In this document: in pieces, positions 1-34,814 of the stretch
Layout of the letters: every line of letters begins with the position of its first letter
Position numbering within the stretch: the stretch's first letter is position 1
IMG/VR virus record: IMGVR_UViG_2703718810_000005
Location: 1-50,143 of that record
Strand: one strand, 5' to 3'
From: a virus
Lineage: Duplodnaviria; Heunggongvirae; Uroviricota; Caudoviricetes
DNA length: 50,143 bases
The notes under the pieces: model-generated
Databases searched by the model: none
Told to the model about the DNA's origin: nothing
What the model saw: the letters and a program-made list of their open reading frames with translations, nothing else
Translations under genes and position numbers: made by a program

Positions 1-906
1 ATACAGCGCCCACTTGTCCACATCCGCCGCCCCCAGGCGTTTTCCCATGCCGTAGCGCGGGTGGGTCAGCATGTCCCACAGGCACCAGGCCGGGTTATTG
101 CTGTATGCCGGTTTCAGACTCCCGTCCCAGATACCGCTGTAGGTGCGTTTTTCCGGGTCATAGTTTGACGGCACCTGAATGATGCGGCCGCGGATATGGT
201 AGTTCACCACCATCTGCTGGCCACCGAACTGCTCCGCATCCACCTGCAGCCCCACAATGGCCGTGTTCGGGTAGCACTGTTTCACATCGATGATTTCGGT
301 GTATGACGACCACAGCGTTCTGTTCTGCAGCTGGTCCGTGGTGCTGTCCGCCGTCACCCTGACCATCCGGATATTAAAGGGGCGCTCAGGGAGATTATTC
401 AGAATCACCGACGTCAGGTACTGCGAGGTGGTCTTGCCGTTAATGGTGACATCCTTCTCCGTCACCCAGTTACCGTTACGCTCAAGCTGAATCAGCAGGC
501 GGACAGAAGAGGGATTACGGTCACCCTTTGAGGTGGTCTCCACCAGTGACTGCACCCCGAAGGTGACCCGCAGACGGTCAATGTTCGCTGACGTGATGGT
601 GCGCGTCACCGGCTTTGCCTTCGTCACCTCCACACCCAGTGCGGTTTCTGCCCCGGAGGACTCAAAGCCTTCCGGCGGTGTCTGCTCCTGCTCCCCGGCA
701 CGCCAGACGGCGGTCACACCGTGTATCACGGGATTACCGTCCGTGTCCGTCAGCGGGGTTTTGTTCACCAGAATACTCTGCAGTCCCTTCACCGGACCTT
801 CCACCGGTCCCTCACCAATGGCATCAATCACGCTCATCATCTGCGTGGATTTGAGATTGTCCTTCGCCTCACGCGGTGTGTGCCCCTTGCCGCCCCCTTT
901 ACCCAC
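1..906 (-). CDS. J: Tail tip/host specificity protein J, N-terminal ~300 codons (3' end lies outside window)
   Basis: Reverse-strand translation gives ...GKGGGKGHTPREAKD... and ...PRYGMGKRLGAADVDKWALY, matching lambda gpJ N-terminus; apparent GTG start at 906 preceded by GGAGAGGGGGA; open to window edge. Confidence 0.85.
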   Translation of the reverse strand, partial: MGKGGGKGHTPREAKDNLKSTQMMSVIDAIGEGPVEGPVKGLQSILVNKTPLTDTDGNPVIHGVTAVWRAGEQEQTPPEGFESSGAETALGVEVTKAKPVTRTITSANIDRLRVTFGVQSLVETTSKGDRNPSSVRLLIQLERNGNWVTEKDVTINGKTTSQYLTSVILNNLPERPFNIRMVRVTADSTTDQLQNRTLWSSYTEIIDVKQCYPNTAIVGLQVDAEQFGGQQMVVNYHIRGRIIQVPSNYDPEKRTYSGIWDGSLKPAYSNNPAWCLWDMLTHPRYGMGKRLGAADVDKWALY

Positions 907-952
907 TCTGTCCCCCTCTCCTGTCTGATGTCTGATGTCTGAATCTGTTTAT

Positions 953-986
953 GCCCAAAAACAACAGGCACCCCGGAGGGTGCCTG
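953..986 (-). terminator. Candidate intrinsic terminator just upstream of J
   Basis: 9 bp perfect stem caggcaccc/gggtgcctg with 4 nt loop, followed on minus strand by TTGTTTTTGGG. Confidence 0.4.
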
Positions 987-1114
987 TGTCATGACGGAAT
1001 AAAATTTCTGAAATTCTTCACATTTCTGCAAATTGCCTGTAGCCGCAATAATGACGCTGCGTTACTTTTTTGATGCCTGAAAAATAACTCCATAACGTTA
1101 ATCTTCATCGTTCT

Positions 1115-1150
1115 CTCCCGCAGCTCCGCTGACTCTGCGGGATTTTTTTA
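1115..1150 (+). terminator. Intrinsic terminator of repeat unit 1
   Basis: cccgcag...ctgcggg stem followed by TTTTTTT. Confidence 0.6.
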
Positions 1151-1341
1151 TCCCTTAAACCCGGCCTGATATTTTCTGTCCTCTGCCACCGATATCCCGC
1201 AGCCCCTTCCTGTGAATAAAAATTCTGAATTTATTCACATTTCTGCAAATTACCTGTGGCACTCATAATCACCATACGTTACAATTCGCCCGCTGATTAC
1301 AGGCAATAATCAAAACTACTCCTTAAGGTGACTATTCGTTT

Positions 1342-1380
1342 CTCCCGTCAATATCCAGGTGTATTACGGGAGATTTTTTA
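1342..1380 (+). terminator. Intrinsic terminator of repeat unit 2
   Basis: ctcccgt...acgggag stem followed by atTTTTTTa. Confidence 0.55.
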
Positions 1381-1569
1381 ATTCCCCCCTCAGTATCACG
1401 GACATTACTGACGCCACTCTGTCGCCAGAGACGAATGTACGGGATAAATAAAAACTCTGATTTTCTTCACATTTTCAGTCATTCTCCGTGGCAGAGTGCA
1501 TTCCGGCAGGTTACAGTTTCTTCGGGTCAATAAAAATAAAACGCCAACAGGTTAGTCAACATCGTTCTC

Positions 1570-1604
1570 TTCCCGCAGCACGGAGTACTGCGGGATTTTT
1601 TTAT
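1570..1604 (+). terminator. Intrinsic terminator of repeat unit 3
   Basis: cccgcag...ctgcggg stem followed by TTTTTTT. Confidence 0.6.
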
Positions 1605-1788
1605 CCCCTGAACCCGGCATGATGCCTTCTGTCCTCTGCCACCGATATCCGGCCCCTCCCTTCCCGTGAATAAAAATTCTGAGTTTATTCACATTTCCGC
1701 ACACTGACTGTAGTGCTCATAATCACGCTGCGTTACAGTTCATCTGCCAGAATAATGAAAAATTCCTTAAAGTTAATCTTCGTATCTC

Positions 1789-1824
1789 TTCCCGCAGGCG
1801 CCGAACACTGCGGGATTTTTTTAT
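1789..1824 (+). terminator. Intrinsic terminator of repeat unit 4 (abuts 3' end of gene I)
   Basis: cccgcag...ctgcggg stem followed by TTTTTTTT. Confidence 0.6.
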
Positions 1825-1826
1825 TT

Positions 1827-2507
1827 TCATCCCCGCCCGATAACCACCACTTTCCCGTCACCGCCCTCATCACGGGTGCTGATGTCCTGGGATATCCGTC
1901 GTGAACCAACCAGCATTTCACCGTAAGGCACCGGCACCGGATTCCCCTGAGCAATCATGTTGTCCAGTGACGAAAAATACGTGTTCTGTCTGCCGTTATC
2001 CGTGCTTTTGTACTCCGGCGTCTTTGCCTTCGGGGCCAGCATCTGGGCCACACCACCCAGTATCATGCTGGCACCCAGTGAGAACAGCATCGTGGTGGCA
2101 GTCAGCCCTCCGGCACTCAGGGCTGCGCCCCACAACGCCATCGTTGCACCGGCGGTGAAGAAAGAGCCCACGATGGCTGCAGCCCCCAGCACCACCTGAA
2201 AAACACCATTTCCCCCGGCCCCTGCCAGCCTCGGTACAATATGAATCACGGCCCTCCCGCTCAGCGGTTCATGAAGACGGGCATACACCGCCTCCGGCGC
2301 GGTATCCTCACCGGCAATACGTATCTGATACCAGCCTTCGTTCATCTGACAGCGGAATCCCGGCACCTGCAGCGACAGGGCACGGATGGCCTCCGCTGCC
2401 GTGTTCACATACAGGCTGATGCGGCGACCAAATCGTTGTAAATCCCCGTGAAGGCAGATGCGGACCAGTGGCGGTGACGCCAGACAGAATGCGTTCGTCG
2501 TTGCCAT
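1827..2507 (-). CDS. I: Tail assembly protein I
   Basis: 226 aa; MATTNAF...ICLHGDLQRFGRRI...QNTYFSSLDNM matches lambda gpI; overlaps K 3' end by ~100 nt as in lambda. Confidence 0.9.
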   Translation of the reverse strand: MATTNAFCLASPPLVRICLHGDLQRFGRRISLYVNTAAEAIRALSLQVPGFRCQMNEGWYQIRIAGEDTAPEAVYARLHEPLSGRAVIHIVPRLAGAGGNGVFQVVLGAAAIVGSFFTAGATMALWGAALSAGGLTATTMLFSLGASMILGGVAQMLAPKAKTPEYKSTDNGRQNTYFSSLDNMIAQGNPVPVPYGEMLVGSRRISQDISTRDEGGDGKVVVIGRG

Positions 2508-3148
2508 TTCTCTGAATACCTCTCCCGTTTACTCAGTTGTTCAGGTATATGGTGAAGCAGCTCACCGTTGCCACAGTAAATGGCGGCATGATTCGGCACC
2601 GATGCGCCAAAGCAGCACAGCAGGATATCGCCTGCCTGTGCAGAGGACAGGGACACCCGGCAAAAGCCGGTGGCCTCCATATTGTCCAGGTACAGGTTCT
2701 GGCCGTTGCGCCACCAGTCATCCTCGCGGTGAAAATCCGGCATCTCAATCCCCGCCAGATGGTATGCATCCCGGAACAGGGTGTAACAGTCCGTCACACC
2801 GTGTTCAAAGCGCCGTCCGGTCAGGTGCGGCACACAGCGGAACCGGTGAATTTCACCCCGGCAGACCAGCCACCAGGGCAGGGCACTCTTTATCTGCAGC
2901 CGCCGGTCCGCCTCGCTCAGCCAGGGCAGACCAGCGGGATGACTGTGGACCAGCGCCACAATCTCCCCCTGCATCTGTGCCTGCAGCCAGTCTTCCGGCG
3001 CAATACGAAAATACGCCTCCGGCTCTGCGGAGATATTCACGCAGGACTGGTACCGTTCGCCCTCCGGGGTGCTTATCACGAAGCCGCACGACTCCGCAGG
3101 CGCACACCGCCGGGCATGCGCCAGAATCACTGATTCAGTCTGTGTCAT
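2405..3148 (-). CDS. K: Tail assembly protein K
   Basis: Starts MTQTESVILAHARRCAPAESCGF, HSHP and ...TDCYTLFRDAYH motifs as in lambda gpK; six-frame ORF extends upstream to 3409 but ATG at 3148 follows L; internal start possible. Confidence 0.85.
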   Translation of the reverse strand: MTQTESVILAHARRCAPAESCGFVISTPEGERYQSCVNISAEPEAYFRIAPEDWLQAQMQGEIVALVHSHPAGLPWLSEADRRLQIKSALPWWLVCRGEIHRFRCVPHLTGRRFEHGVTDCYTLFRDAYHLAGIEMPDFHREDDWWRNGQNLYLDNMEATGFCRVSLSSAQAGDILLCCFGASVPNHAAIYCGNGELLHHIPEQLSKRERYSEKWQRRTHSVWRHRHWSASAFTGIYNDLVAASACM

Positions 3149-3158
3149 AAAACGGGAT

Positions 3159-3857
3159 TTACTGCGAAAGTTTATTAATGGAAAGGAAACCGCCGAAATT
3201 AGCCACCATGCCGCGCATCTCACACCCGCGCATGCATTTACTGCATCTGTCCTTCCGGATATCCGTGGTGGGGTTGTCGAACTCATCCGCCACTGCCGGA
3301 CCGTTATACCCGCATTCATCGCCCCGGTAATCCCACATACAGGTGTTCGCCAGCATGATGCGACCGGGAAACAGCACACCGTCCGTCTCCGTCGGTGTCG
3401 CCAGCACAAACGAGGCCGTCATGGCCGTCAGCGCTGACATCTGCTCCACCACCCAGCGGTCCGTCAGCTCCTGCTCCGGGTCTGCCTCAGGATTGCCTGC
3501 CACAAAGTTCACCGCATCCAGAAAACGCGCATACACCCGGCGACGGACCACCGTGGCCCCCACCAGGCTCTGCAAATCCTCCGCCATCCCGGTGGCAAGG
3601 CCAAACAGATTGGACACCGTCAGCGACGGGCGGGCACTGCTGCCCTTTCCGTTCATCTCAAAGCCGCTGCCCTCAATCGGGTAGGCCTGATATTCACGCC
3701 CCTGCCAGGTCACCGGCTCCCCTTTTTCATTCAGCTCATTGCAGAAAAAATACCGCTCACCGCCCTGCAACGTCAGGTCGATTTCCCAGAGCACCACCCG
3801 CGGTGACTGCTCTGACTTAACCGACTCGTTCAGGCTTTCTTCGTGAATATCCTGCAT
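3159..3857 (-). CDS. L: Minor tail protein L
   Basis: 232 aa, MQDIHEESLNE...VVLWEIDL like lambda gpL. Confidence 0.9.
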   Translation of the reverse strand: MQDIHEESLNESVKSEQSPRVVLWEIDLTLQGGERYFFCNELNEKGEPVTWQGREYQAYPIEGSGFEMNGKGSSARPSLTVSNLFGLATGMAEDLQSLVGATVVRRRVYARFLDAVNFVAGNPEADPEQELTDRWVVEQMSALTAMTASFVLATPTETDGVLFPGRIMLANTCMWDYRGDECGYNGPAVADEFDNPTTDIRKDRCSKCMRGCEMRGMVANFGGFLSINKLSQ

Positions 3858-31848: not shown

Positions 31849-32069
31849 GCAGCACCTCCGAGATGCTTCATGTTTTTTCCGGAGCGAAAGGCTATAAGCG
31901 GCATACTGACGCGGTAATTACGGCCCAGCGGTTCACAAATCACCTTCTGACATTCACGGTCAACCAGGCTAACACGTAGAACATGCCCTGCAGGCGTGGT
32001 GTACCACTGACCCGGACGAGGACAACGGAAAGTCTGATTGGTAAAACGTTTGAAAATATTCCGGATCAT
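31845..32069 (-). CDS. Hypothetical small protein
   Basis: 74 aa ORF with ATGA-type overlaps to both neighbours. Confidence 0.35.
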   Translation of the reverse strand: MIRNIFKRFTNQTFRCPRPGQWYTTPAGHVLRVSLVDRECQKVICEPLGRNYRVSMPLIAFRSGKNMKHLGGAA

Positions 32070-33217
32070 TTGCGCCCCCTTGCCTCTGAAGGGTTCAGCG
32101 ACAAATTTATGAGACTGGCCAGTAGCGCCGCGTCGTTGATGCGGTCATACAGACTTACAGCCAGCGGGGATTCGGCTTTTGCCAACATGGGATAAAGCTG
32201 CTGCAGCCAGACCTTGTGGATTACCGACAGGTGGGAGTAAAGCACGCTGGCGTTATCTGCGGCATCGCTCAGCGTGGATGGCTTTGAAAGCAGTTTTTCC
32301 ATCTGGTTAAAGGCATTTATGTATGCCTCTTTGAACCGGGCAGCACGTTTACCAGTGAAGCCCATGGCAAGAAACGCAAAACCGTCGCGGGTGATTTGGT
32401 AACAAGGGAGTTTGCGGCCTGATGCGTCGGTGTATTCACTTAACACAAAATTGTGTTCAGTAAATTCAGCGGAACATTCGAGGTTTCTAATTCTATCTAA
32501 AACCCGCTCATGCCGTTTAGTAAAGTAATTAGCTACTGCAAGAGATGTGGTGACAACGCGACCATTGATAATCGTGATTTCAGGGTGAGATTGGGTTGGG
32601 AGAGTAGTCATGGTGACAGCCCCTATGTTGAATTCAATGAACTCACCACCAAGGCTTTCCACGACCATATAGGTGGTGAGACGTACAGGGGTGGAAATAC
32701 CGGTCAACATAGAACCCGGCCCAACCGAAGTTGGCCCTGCACGCCCCACCATAATTTGGGCGTAACGATGCTCATGACACGAAAAAACCGCATGAGCGCG
32801 GTTGTGCTCTATATTGAATTTCGGGTTTCCACGCCCGGCCCCCGCTTTATAAGGTGCCTGAGCAGTGTAACGTCCCGGAATTGCAGAATCAATATGCTGG
32901 TGGTCCTTCACACTCAACAAAATCACGCCTGAATTTCCACAAAGGACTAAAGCACTCATGCGGGTAGTCTTTGCGAAGATAGATAACGCGCTGTGTTTCT
33001 GGCTCCCAACGAATAACATGAACATAAAGTCCTCTTCCGTCACGAAACCAGCGGTTAAGTTCCTGCACAACTCGCCCCCCACAGTCAGGTAAAGTTCTCT
33101 GTGGTTACTTACAGCCAGGTGATTTGGTAATCTGCATTCATGCCGTAACAACAGGTGTTCAGCGACGCTGACCACCAGCTGTTGCGACAAACGGTTATTT
33201 GCCGTTAAACTATTCAT
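32066..33217 (-). CDS. Rha-domain protein with ~200 aa N-terminal extension of unknown function
   Basis: 383 aa ORF; C-terminal half has Rha-like ...INGRVVTTSLAVANYFTKRHERVLDRIRNLE...; internal ATG at 32611 could be the true start of a shorter Rha protein. Confidence 0.5.
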   Translation of the reverse strand: MNSLTANNRLSQQLVVSVAEHLLLRHECRLPNHLAVSNHRELYLTVGGELCRNLTAGFVTEEDFMFMLFVGSQKHSALSIFAKTTRMSALVLCGNSGVILLSVKDHQHIDSAIPGRYTAQAPYKAGAGRGNPKFNIEHNRAHAVFSCHEHRYAQIMVGRAGPTSVGPGSMLTGISTPVRLTTYMVVESLGGEFIEFNIGAVTMTTLPTQSHPEITIINGRVVTTSLAVANYFTKRHERVLDRIRNLECSAEFTEHNFVLSEYTDASGRKLPCYQITRDGFAFLAMGFTGKRAARFKEAYINAFNQMEKLLSKPSTLSDAADNASVLYSHLSVIHKVWLQQLYPMLAKAESPLAVSLYDRINDAALLASLINLSLNPSEARGRK

Positions 33218-34121: not shown

Positions 34122-34814
34122 ATGAACATAGGAAATCGAGTCAGACAACTTCGCCAGGCGAAGAACATGAAAATCGCCGATCTCGCTGAAGCAATAGGAG
34201 TGGATGCGGCGAATATCTCGCGCCTCGAAACAGGTAAGCAGAAACAATTCACTGAACAAGCCCTGAGTAATATTGCCAGGAGCTTAGGTGTTGATATTGC
34301 TGATCTCTTTACCTCAGACCTCAAAAGTAATACTGTATGTAAAAACAGTATTAGTGAGGATGTTGCGCAGGTGAAGGATGTATTCCGTATTGAAATGCTG
34401 GATGTCAGTGCCAGTGCGGGAAATGGCCTTATCCAGGGCGGTGATGTCATTGATGTGATTCATGCCATTGAATACAGAACTGATAATGCTGTATCGATGT
34501 TTGGTGGACGACCAGCAAATCACATTAAAGTTATCAACGTTCGTGGGGACAGTATGTGTCCAACCATTGAGCCAGGAGATCTCATCTTCGTTGATATCAG
34601 TATCAATCAGTTTGATGGGGATGGTATATATGTATTTGGTTTTGATGATAAAATTTACGTCAAACGACTGCAAATGATACCTGATAAACTGCTGGTAATT
34701 TCTGATAATCAGATTTACCGCGAATGGGGAATTACCAGCGAAAACGAACATCGGTTTATGGTCTTTGGAAAGGTCTTAATCAGTCAGTCACAAACCCTTA
34801 AGCGACACAATTAA
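34122..34814 (+). CDS. cI: CI-type prophage repressor (HTH + S24 LexA-like peptidase)
   Basis: 230 aa; N-terminal ...RVRQLRQAKNMKIADLAEAIGVDAANISRLETGK...; C-terminal ...GDSMCPTIEPGDLIFVD... and ...KRLQ... S24 motifs. Confidence 0.85.
   Translation: MNIGNRVRQLRQAKNMKIADLAEAIGVDAANISRLETGKQKQFTEQALSNIARSLGVDIADLFTSDLKSNTVCKNSISEDVAQVKDVFRIEMLDVSASAGNGLIQGGDVIDVIHAIEYRTDNAVSMFGGRPANHIKVINVRGDSMCPTIEPGDLIFVDISINQFDGDGIYVFGFDDKIYVKRLQMIPDKLLVISDNQIYREWGITSENEHRFMVFGKVLISQSQTLKRHN

Follow-up and report, generated by a model that had tools for sequence, protein, structure and literature searches.

Between the tail genes I and J of a Shiga-toxin-type prophage lies a tandem array of four short units that we read as small-RNA (sRNA) genes. 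The prophage is the 50,143-nucleotide DNA of a virus of the class Caudoviricetes (IMG/VR record IMGVR_UViG_2703718810_000005, positions 1 to 50,143; the whole stretch is referred to as the window). By alignment and by position, the four units are members of one family with PasB of enteropathogenic Escherichia coli (EPEC) and EcOnc22-24 of enterohaemorrhagic E. coli (EHEC), a family set at the I-J junction. It is quite probable that the I-J gap holds four autonomous sRNA genes of this PasB/EcOnc22 family, independently transcribed, Hfq-dependent, trans-acting, and probably co-regulated. The RNA family is already known under two names, while the tandem stacking appears unreported and is likely the new part.

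The four units and their relatives

The units lie head to tail on the plus strand, antisense to the tail operon, and fill the I-J gap, with 5′ blocks that start at 998, 1215, 1447, and 1669. Each is built of a conserved 5′ block, a −10-like element (diverged in unit 3), a variable body, and a GC hairpin followed by a U-run. A repeat finder returned three families of four copies each, corresponding to the 5′ block (998/1215/1447/1669), the body (1080/1311/1534/1755), and the terminator (1125/1354/1578/1798), with a unit spacing of 217-232 bp. The 28-nt block pattern AATAAAANNTCTGANNNTNTTCACATTT has exactly four matches in the 50 kb, versus 0.00 expected from 100 shuffles, and a profile of 74 family variants, taken from IMG/VR and annotated genomes, matches at the four units alone within the window (E 1e-28 to 1e-43). 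The four tandem units proposed in the initial annotation of this DNA are confirmed by all three approaches. Compared with one another, the units are 68-82% identical over the promoter, 60-72% over the body, and 58-91% over the terminator. In the 74-variant profile, the conserved elements follow one another in the order of a ~28-nt block AATAAAAnnTCTGAnnnTnTTCACATTT (>90% conserved), C(T/C)GT(G/A)G, a −10-like hexamer, GCTGCGTTA, a T-run, a variable A-rich stretch, AACTCC, GTTAATCTTC, a pyrimidine tract, and the terminator.

Unit 1 (998..1150, plus strand; nhmmer E 7e-43) is an EcOnc22-type sRNA gene. Its block spans 998-1025, with TCTGA-N6-TCACA at 1007-1022, and the candidate −10 elements AATAAT (1047-1052) and TACTTT (1063-1068) go with a predicted RNA from ~1059 or ~1075 to 1150 that ends in the terminator at 1116-1150; the fold has a free energy of −20.6 kcal/mol (z −3.4), and the terminator is followed by U7. 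Unit 2 (1215..1380, plus strand; nhmmer E 2e-28) has its block at 1215-1242, a perfect 8-bp inverted repeat at 1212-1236, −10 candidates CATAAT (1264-1269) and TACAAT (1280-1285), a predicted RNA from ~1276 or ~1292 to 1380, and a terminator at 1341-1380 with the stem CUCCCGU/ACGGGAG; its subtype is that of the first unit of 2- and 3-unit arrays. Unit 3 (1447..1603, plus strand; block 1447-1474; nhmmer E 8e-33) is the most diverged: GTGCAT stands at the P1 −10 position (1496-1501), TACAGT (1512-1517) is intact, the predicted RNA runs from ~1506 or ~1524 to 1603 with its terminator at 1571-1603, and the unit is related to a common single-unit subtype with TATCAT at the P1 position. Unit 4 (1669..1823, plus strand; block 1669-1696; nhmmer E 2e-38) again has a perfect 8-bp inverted repeat (1666-1690), −10 candidates CATAAT (1718-1723) and TACAGT (1734-1739), and a predicted RNA from ~1730 or ~1746 to 1823; its terminator (1790-1823) ends 4 nt from the I stop codon, and the unit aligns with a single Sakai unit together with the 3′ end of I. 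The units are separated by two copies of spacer A (1152..1210 and 1605..1664, 89% identical), which is found in 3- and 4-unit arrays only, and by one spacer B (1382..1442), found in 4-unit arrays only.

Folding gives every unit a stem of 7-9 bp rich in G+C followed by U6-7 on the plus strand, which bears out the GC stem and T-run ascribed to each unit beforehand. The bodies are unpaired or mostly unpaired in the centroid folds of units 2-4 and of PasB. RNAalifold on a MAFFT alignment returned only three pairs, since the alignment failed to match up the terminator arms from one subtype to another; listed sequence by sequence, the stem variants keep their pairing (CCCGCAG/CUGCGGG, CCCACAG/CUGUGGG, and UCUCCCGU/ACGGGAGA). 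Each body contains runs of two to four (ARN) repeats and, upstream of the terminator, two conserved motifs, AACUCC and GUUAAUCUUC. The first reads ACGCC and not ACUCC in unit 3; the second is GUUAAUCUUC in units 1 and 4, GUGACUAUUC in unit 2, and GUUAGUCAAC in unit 3, so that units 2 and 3 differ at 3-4 positions. We propose that AACUCC ... GUUAAUCUUC is the seed region. As far as the sequence and its folds tell, the units follow the standard plan for Hfq-dependent trans-acting sRNAs.

PasB (pathogenicity-associated sRNA B) belongs to a set of five prophage sRNAs identified through the ligation and sequencing of interacting RNAs (RIL-seq) in EPEC E2348/69. It is 83 nt long, Northern-verified, and dependent on Hfq for its stability (Pearl Mizrahi et al. 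2021, PMC8550237), and the data of the same study give log2 values of −6.8 and −2.4 in the hfq mutant and make PasB a RIL-seq hub with 37 partners. By its coordinates, PasB belongs to prophage PP6, where it lies in the space separating the tail assembly gene I from gpJ and is antisense to both. All four units align with the PasB locus over its full extent (block, −10, body, and terminator) at a mean column identity of 73%, the unit bodies being 61-69% identical to that of PasB, and the PasB Northern probe approximates the reverse complement of the unit 1 terminator.

EcOnc22, EcOnc23, and EcOnc24 of EHEC O157:H7 Sakai were identified as Hfq peaks by cross-linking and analysis of cDNA (CRAC), give a ~85-nt Northern band, are destabilized without hfq, and were described as mutually homologous (Tree et al. 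2014, PMC4104026). They map to the J-I intergenic regions of the Sakai prophages Sp15, Sp14, and Sp11, respectively, antisense to the tail genes, and unit 1 is identical to the Sp15 unit at 158 of 164 positions. The published Sakai peak coordinates refer to an older genome version, offset by ~128-146 bp from the current RefSeq; we calibrated the shift on AgvB1, which Rfam places 137-146 bp to the right of the published peak, and after correction all three EcOnc peaks fall on the sRNA body.

We did not find the link between PasB and EcOnc22-24 stated in the papers searched on either sRNA set, and in the PasB table EHEC homologues are entered for PasA and for PasD, with none for PasB. No Rfam family matches the units, either at the gathering score or at E values up to 10 (positions 850-1950); their identity came instead from the literature and alignment. 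The suggestion that they might relate to sRNAs of EHEC prophages proved right for EcOnc22-24 and wrong for AgvB/AsxR, which we ruled out: these lie elsewhere, 3′ of PR′, and their Rfam models (RF02702/RF02703) have no match to the array at E up to 10, in a search that works on Sakai, where AgvB is found. Homology to PasB and EcOnc22-24 likewise supports the earlier idea of independent short plus-strand RNAs with a common 5′ control block and diversified bodies, and a comparison of I-J junctions among lambdoid prophages recovered the same sRNA family at the same site and on the same strand elsewhere. As a side observation, one RIL-seq chimera joins PasB to an intergenic RNA beside pasA, in another prophage (E2348/69 NC_011601 743494-743512, plus strand), which hints at RNA-RNA cross-talk between prophage transcripts.

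Distribution and origin of the arrays

We counted units with the profile in 123 loci: 108 loci have one unit, four have two, one has three (to which one array truncated by a contig end is added), and eight, including the window, have four. Some match is present in ~1,690 of 5,426 complete E. coli genomes. Arrays covered over at least 80% of their length are far from common in this set, with ~33 genomes carrying the 2-unit, ~43 the 3-unit, and ~79 the 4-unit form, and as many as 10 places match in a single genome of Shiga-toxin-producing E. coli (STEC). Array-bearing STEC strains include O91:H21 FWSEC0008 (NZ_CP031906.1) and FORC_041. Copies of the 4-unit array from different genomes are 98-99.5% identical, and for this reason the array may be young. 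No record in the isolated-phage collection has the array, and none above four units was found, a junction-pattern scan of IMG/VR giving 4-unit arrays only, on 10 contigs. In a wider host search with one genome per species, only Escherichia albertii matched, other matches in unrelated genomes being taken as chance. RefSeq has no annotation in array-bearing I-J gaps.

Each unit of the array is a different subtype, and the same or a related subtype occurs singly in other prophages. The array is therefore probably the product of recombination that joined I-J junctions from different lambdoid prophages, in which block and terminator would have supplied the homology. Compared to Sakai, the array amounts to an Sp15-like unit plus ~670 bp of extra DNA, i.e., three further units, joined within shared terminator sequence, and the repeat finder shows that a terminator-spacer-promoter segment recurs at 1135-1287 and 1588-1741 with 83-89% identity. 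The spacers may be remnants of the I 3′ end, which is suggestive but not significant: the translations RDIGGRGQKISGRV and RDEGGDGKVVVIGRG, each running into a stop, look alike by eye, but tblastn gives E 0.63 in a tiny database, and spacer A is confined to arrays. On a bolder and rather unlikely proposal, the I-J junction would be a dedicated sRNA cassette site at which block and terminator serve as recombination handles to exchange and stack one to four seed-diversified bodies, so that a poly-lysogenic STEC assembles a co-regulated sRNA battery, part of whose role could be antisense interference with rival tail-operon mRNAs carrying the matching junction allele.

A 2026 survey of the Pas sRNAs (Zhu, Shabalina and Storz, preprint) used a word size of 28, required 75% query coverage, saw no two PasB copies within 28 kb of each other, and treated Pas copies as non-tandem in its discussion. 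The longest exact word common to PasB and the array is 17 nt, and a 28-nt word in common with PasB exists in only 28 of 124 junction loci; consequently, the tandem arrays and most subtypes would have been invisible to that survey. The family is several times broader than word-28 BLAST with PasB reveals, and it unites, as one I-J-junction family, two separately named sets of detected sRNAs, PasB and EcOnc22-24. Tandem stacking and family breadth are modest additions and do not amount to a new kind of system. In some Shiga-toxin prophages, as many as four diverged copies are stacked, each preceded by the same block, which provides a natural series (one, two, three, and four units; different seeds, same promoter) for studying the duplication and diversification of acquired sRNAs, and the TCTGA-N6-TCACA block is one testable regulator site.

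Control block, promoters, and rival explanations

The block core TCTGA-N6-TCACATTT (TCTGA-N6-TCACA) is present in all four units and in 108 of 108 distinct family units. The latter include the internal units of 2- and 3-unit arrays, which were not retrieved by the pattern and have their upstream GAATAAAA replaced. The initial annotation emphasized instead a perfect 8-bp inverted repeat, TGAATAAA-N9-TTTATTCA, in each unit; this is correct for units 2 and 4 and not for unit 1 (5/8) or unit 3 (6/8). The perfect repeat occurs in only 14 of the 108 distinct units and is subtype-specific, and the palindrome was rejected as a family-wide operator. Similarly, the −10-like CATAAT/AATAAT described for every unit stands in units 1, 2, and 4, with GTGCAT in unit 3, and a simple sigma-70 scan flags none of the promoters proposed, as the −35 elements are weak.

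Two −10 candidates recur in the family. The upstream one (nATAAT or TATCAT) is found in 95 of the 108 units and would put the block centre at −44.5. The other, TAnnnT, lies eleven bases downstream of nATAAT, has GTGGCN 18 bp upstream, and is found in all 108; the start that it predicts coincides with the 5′ end reported for PasB and puts the block centre at ~−60.5. A site for the cyclic AMP (cAMP) receptor protein, CRP, is 22 bp long with the core TGTGA-N6-TCACA, and has its centre at −41.5 in class II promoters and near −61.5, −71.5, etc. in class I promoters. Against this consensus, as distinct from a curated matrix, the block core agrees at nine of ten positions, and its right half, TCACATTT, is perfect. 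PasB chimeras in the RIL-seq data number 258 in Dulbecco's modified Eagle medium (DMEM) versus 1,820 in overnight static lysogeny broth (LB), the same direction as CyaR (4,299 versus 7,362) and opposite to Spot 42 (7,925 versus 387). The block is a candidate CRP control site, a hypothesis with about a one-in-three chance; a common input to all four promoters is likely. Among other regulators, compared by motif and not by curated matrix, the ARG box fits units 2 and 4 only and lacks a second box, and Fur, FNR, RcsAB, and Fis fit poorly.

If the four units are indeed autonomous sRNA genes, each would possess its own promoter behind the TCTGA-N6-TCACATTT block and yield an RNA of ~80-95 nt closed by a Rho-independent terminator. 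The RNA would comprise an (A-R-N)n stretch, a mostly unpaired body with the two motifs, a U-rich tract, the terminator hairpin, and a U-tail. Transcription of all four would take place in the lysogen, at a time when the tail operon is off, with a shared transcriptional input through the common block, for which cAMP-CRP would be the best guess. The single-stranded motifs would then pair, on Hfq, with host and prophage mRNAs. Because units 1 and 4 share motif 2 and units 2 and 3 differ from it, the array would widen the target range and not merely raise the dose. An RNAduplex target scan of prophage start regions was discarded, as its duplexes were unrealistically long.

Several points weigh against this account. 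Transcription of units 2-4 is predicted from homology, and the mapping of EcOnc22 depends on the coordinate shift that we deduced for Sakai. EcOnc22 is named in one review only, which enters its targets as unknown. Unit 3 has lost both the better −10 (GTGCAT) and motif 1 (ACGCC), and so may be weak or dead. The invariance of the block is partly circular, given that most family members were retrieved by a block-containing pattern, and the two overlapping candidate promoters are indistinguishable by sequence. With regard to CRP, the left half-site of the block has C where CRP sites have G, the −44.5 placement is 3 bp off the class II position, and the TAnnnT placement is 1 bp off class I. LB and DMEM cultures also contrast in oxygen and growth phase, and reporters of sigma-S and of FNR show a rise as well; the shift fits cAMP-CRP without singling it out.

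The changes in unit 3 lead to the possible, though doubtful, alternative that only the EcOnc22-type unit 1, and perhaps one more, works, the rest being decaying passenger copies left by prophage recombination. Unit 3, in which the main −10 position reads GTGCAT and conserved motifs are changed, is the likeliest candidate for such a copy, and in 2-unit arrays the −10 of some first units is destroyed (AACCTT). Arrays are rare (~3% of complete genomes), and the near-identity of the 4-unit array from genome to genome would suit a recent passenger. However, all four units keep the block, TAnnnT, an intact terminator hairpin, and the U-run; three array architectures arose and persisted; and some other prophages have the unit 2 or unit 4 subtype, or a close relative of it, as their sole copy. 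That the units encode small proteins and not RNAs is very improbable. ORFs (open reading frames) of 30-63 codons do overlap them on both strands, but ORF position, frame, and length differ between units, the indels between subtypes are not multiples of three, and the homologues have the behaviour of Hfq-bound sRNAs. Coding potential was rejected, with no ORF conserved from unit to unit and no Pfam match to the small ORFs tested; the absence of a conserved ORF, noted earlier from the sequence, is thereby borne out by both the ORF list and Pfam.

The position of the family invites another, improbable reading, in which the RNAs act in cis or on sibling prophages: antisense to the I-J spacer of the tail mRNA, they would trigger its cleavage or lower J synthesis, and by extension the four subtypes could target late mRNAs from four lambdoid lineages within one poly-lysogen. 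Every family member lies at the I-J junction, antisense to the tail operon, the subtypes of the array have relatives carried singly by other prophages, and the many matching places in one STEC genome would provide such targets. Yet the RNAs overlap neither the J ribosome-binding site nor any coding sequence, and the RNA of unit 1 begins at a distance of ~150 nt from the J start; in uninduced cells, PasB is found on Hfq with many partners in trans; and after induction, late transcripts would vastly exceed the sRNA. We continue to prefer four trans-acting sRNA genes.

Setting in the prophage and comparison with known systems

The left end of the window consists of the lambda-type tail genes K, I, and J, all on the minus strand and assigned by Pfam. 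J (tail tip) is represented by its 5′ part (1..906, minus strand; FNIII-A_GpJ, E 4.7e-42), which begins with a GTG at 906-904, reads MGKGGGKGHTPREAKDNL at its N-terminus, and leaves the window. I (tail assembly) occupies 1827..2507 (minus strand; Lambda_tail_I, PF06805, E 2.9e-14), with K upstream in the tail operon (2405-3409, minus strand). As I spans 1827-2507 and the J start lies at 906, the non-coding gap is 920 bp, versus 60 bp in lambda, in line with the initial estimate of ~900 bp.

Two further elements precede J. Direct reading of the J 5′ untranslated region identifies three copies of the heptamer TGTCTGA (922..942, minus strand), whose number varies from two to four among related loci. 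A terminator scan located an intrinsic-terminator-like hairpin with a U-run on the sense strand of the tail operon (954..987, minus strand), flanked by the sRNA module on one side and the J ribosome-binding site on the other, with a 10-bp stem containing seven GC pairs followed by TGTTTTTGGG. The hairpin is kept in related loci, with a compensatory change from C-G to U-A, and intermediate variants pair (G.U) in the minus-strand RNA only. It is placed inside an operon read by Q-modified polymerase, and the 60-bp I-J gap of lambda has a comparable hairpin and T-run. On its antisense strand, the lambda gap (746-805 of its locus) also carries TTTCACATAAAAC, faintly like the block end TTCACATTTT, which could be chance or a remnant.

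The remainder of the window is in keeping with a Shiga-toxin-type prophage. It includes an ORF of the ribosome-inactivating protein (RIP) family, StxA-like (25456-26412, minus strand), the antiterminator Q (26910-27347), a match to the STnc100 sRNA downstream of the toxin region (24885-25098, 194 bits), a NanS-p-like esterase (22708-24672), and a CI-like repressor (34122-34814). A C4 antisense RNA match (82 bits) with an adjoining isrK match (58 bits) lies at 32669-32857 on the minus strand, within or upstream of an Ash/Rha-domain ORF (32066-33217). The C4/isrK/Ash-Rha region resembles the c4-antirepressor immunity module of the P1/P7 type, here in a lambdoid prophage that also has a CI-like repressor.

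PasB of EPEC E2348/69 PP6, one of the closest relatives of the array, has in common with it the I-gpJ site, the antisense strand, the unit plan, and alignment over the full unit; it is a single gene, as opposed to four in tandem here. EcOnc22-24 of Sakai share the I-J junction and the strand, with unit 1 being 96% identical to the Sp15 unit, and differ in that each Sakai prophage has one unit. AgvB and AsxR resemble the units as prophage-encoded, Hfq-bound short RNAs of the same phage group, but they lie in the moron region 3′ of PR′, have another sequence, and have Rfam models of their own (RF02702/RF02703).

With regard to tandem organization, the array is comparable to OmrA/OmrB of E. coli and PrrF1/PrrF2 of Pseudomonas, adjacent sRNA genes on the same strand, each with its own promoter and terminator. 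LhrC1-4 of Listeria are reportedly tandem paralogous sRNA genes on the same strand, also with their own promoters and terminators. Common to all these loci and the array are a shared upstream control sequence and partly overlapping seeds. The known examples are chromosomal core loci controlled by OmpR, Fur, and LisR, respectively, whereas the array resides in the late structural operon of a Shiga-toxin prophage, and it was apparently built from alleles of different phages and not by local duplication.

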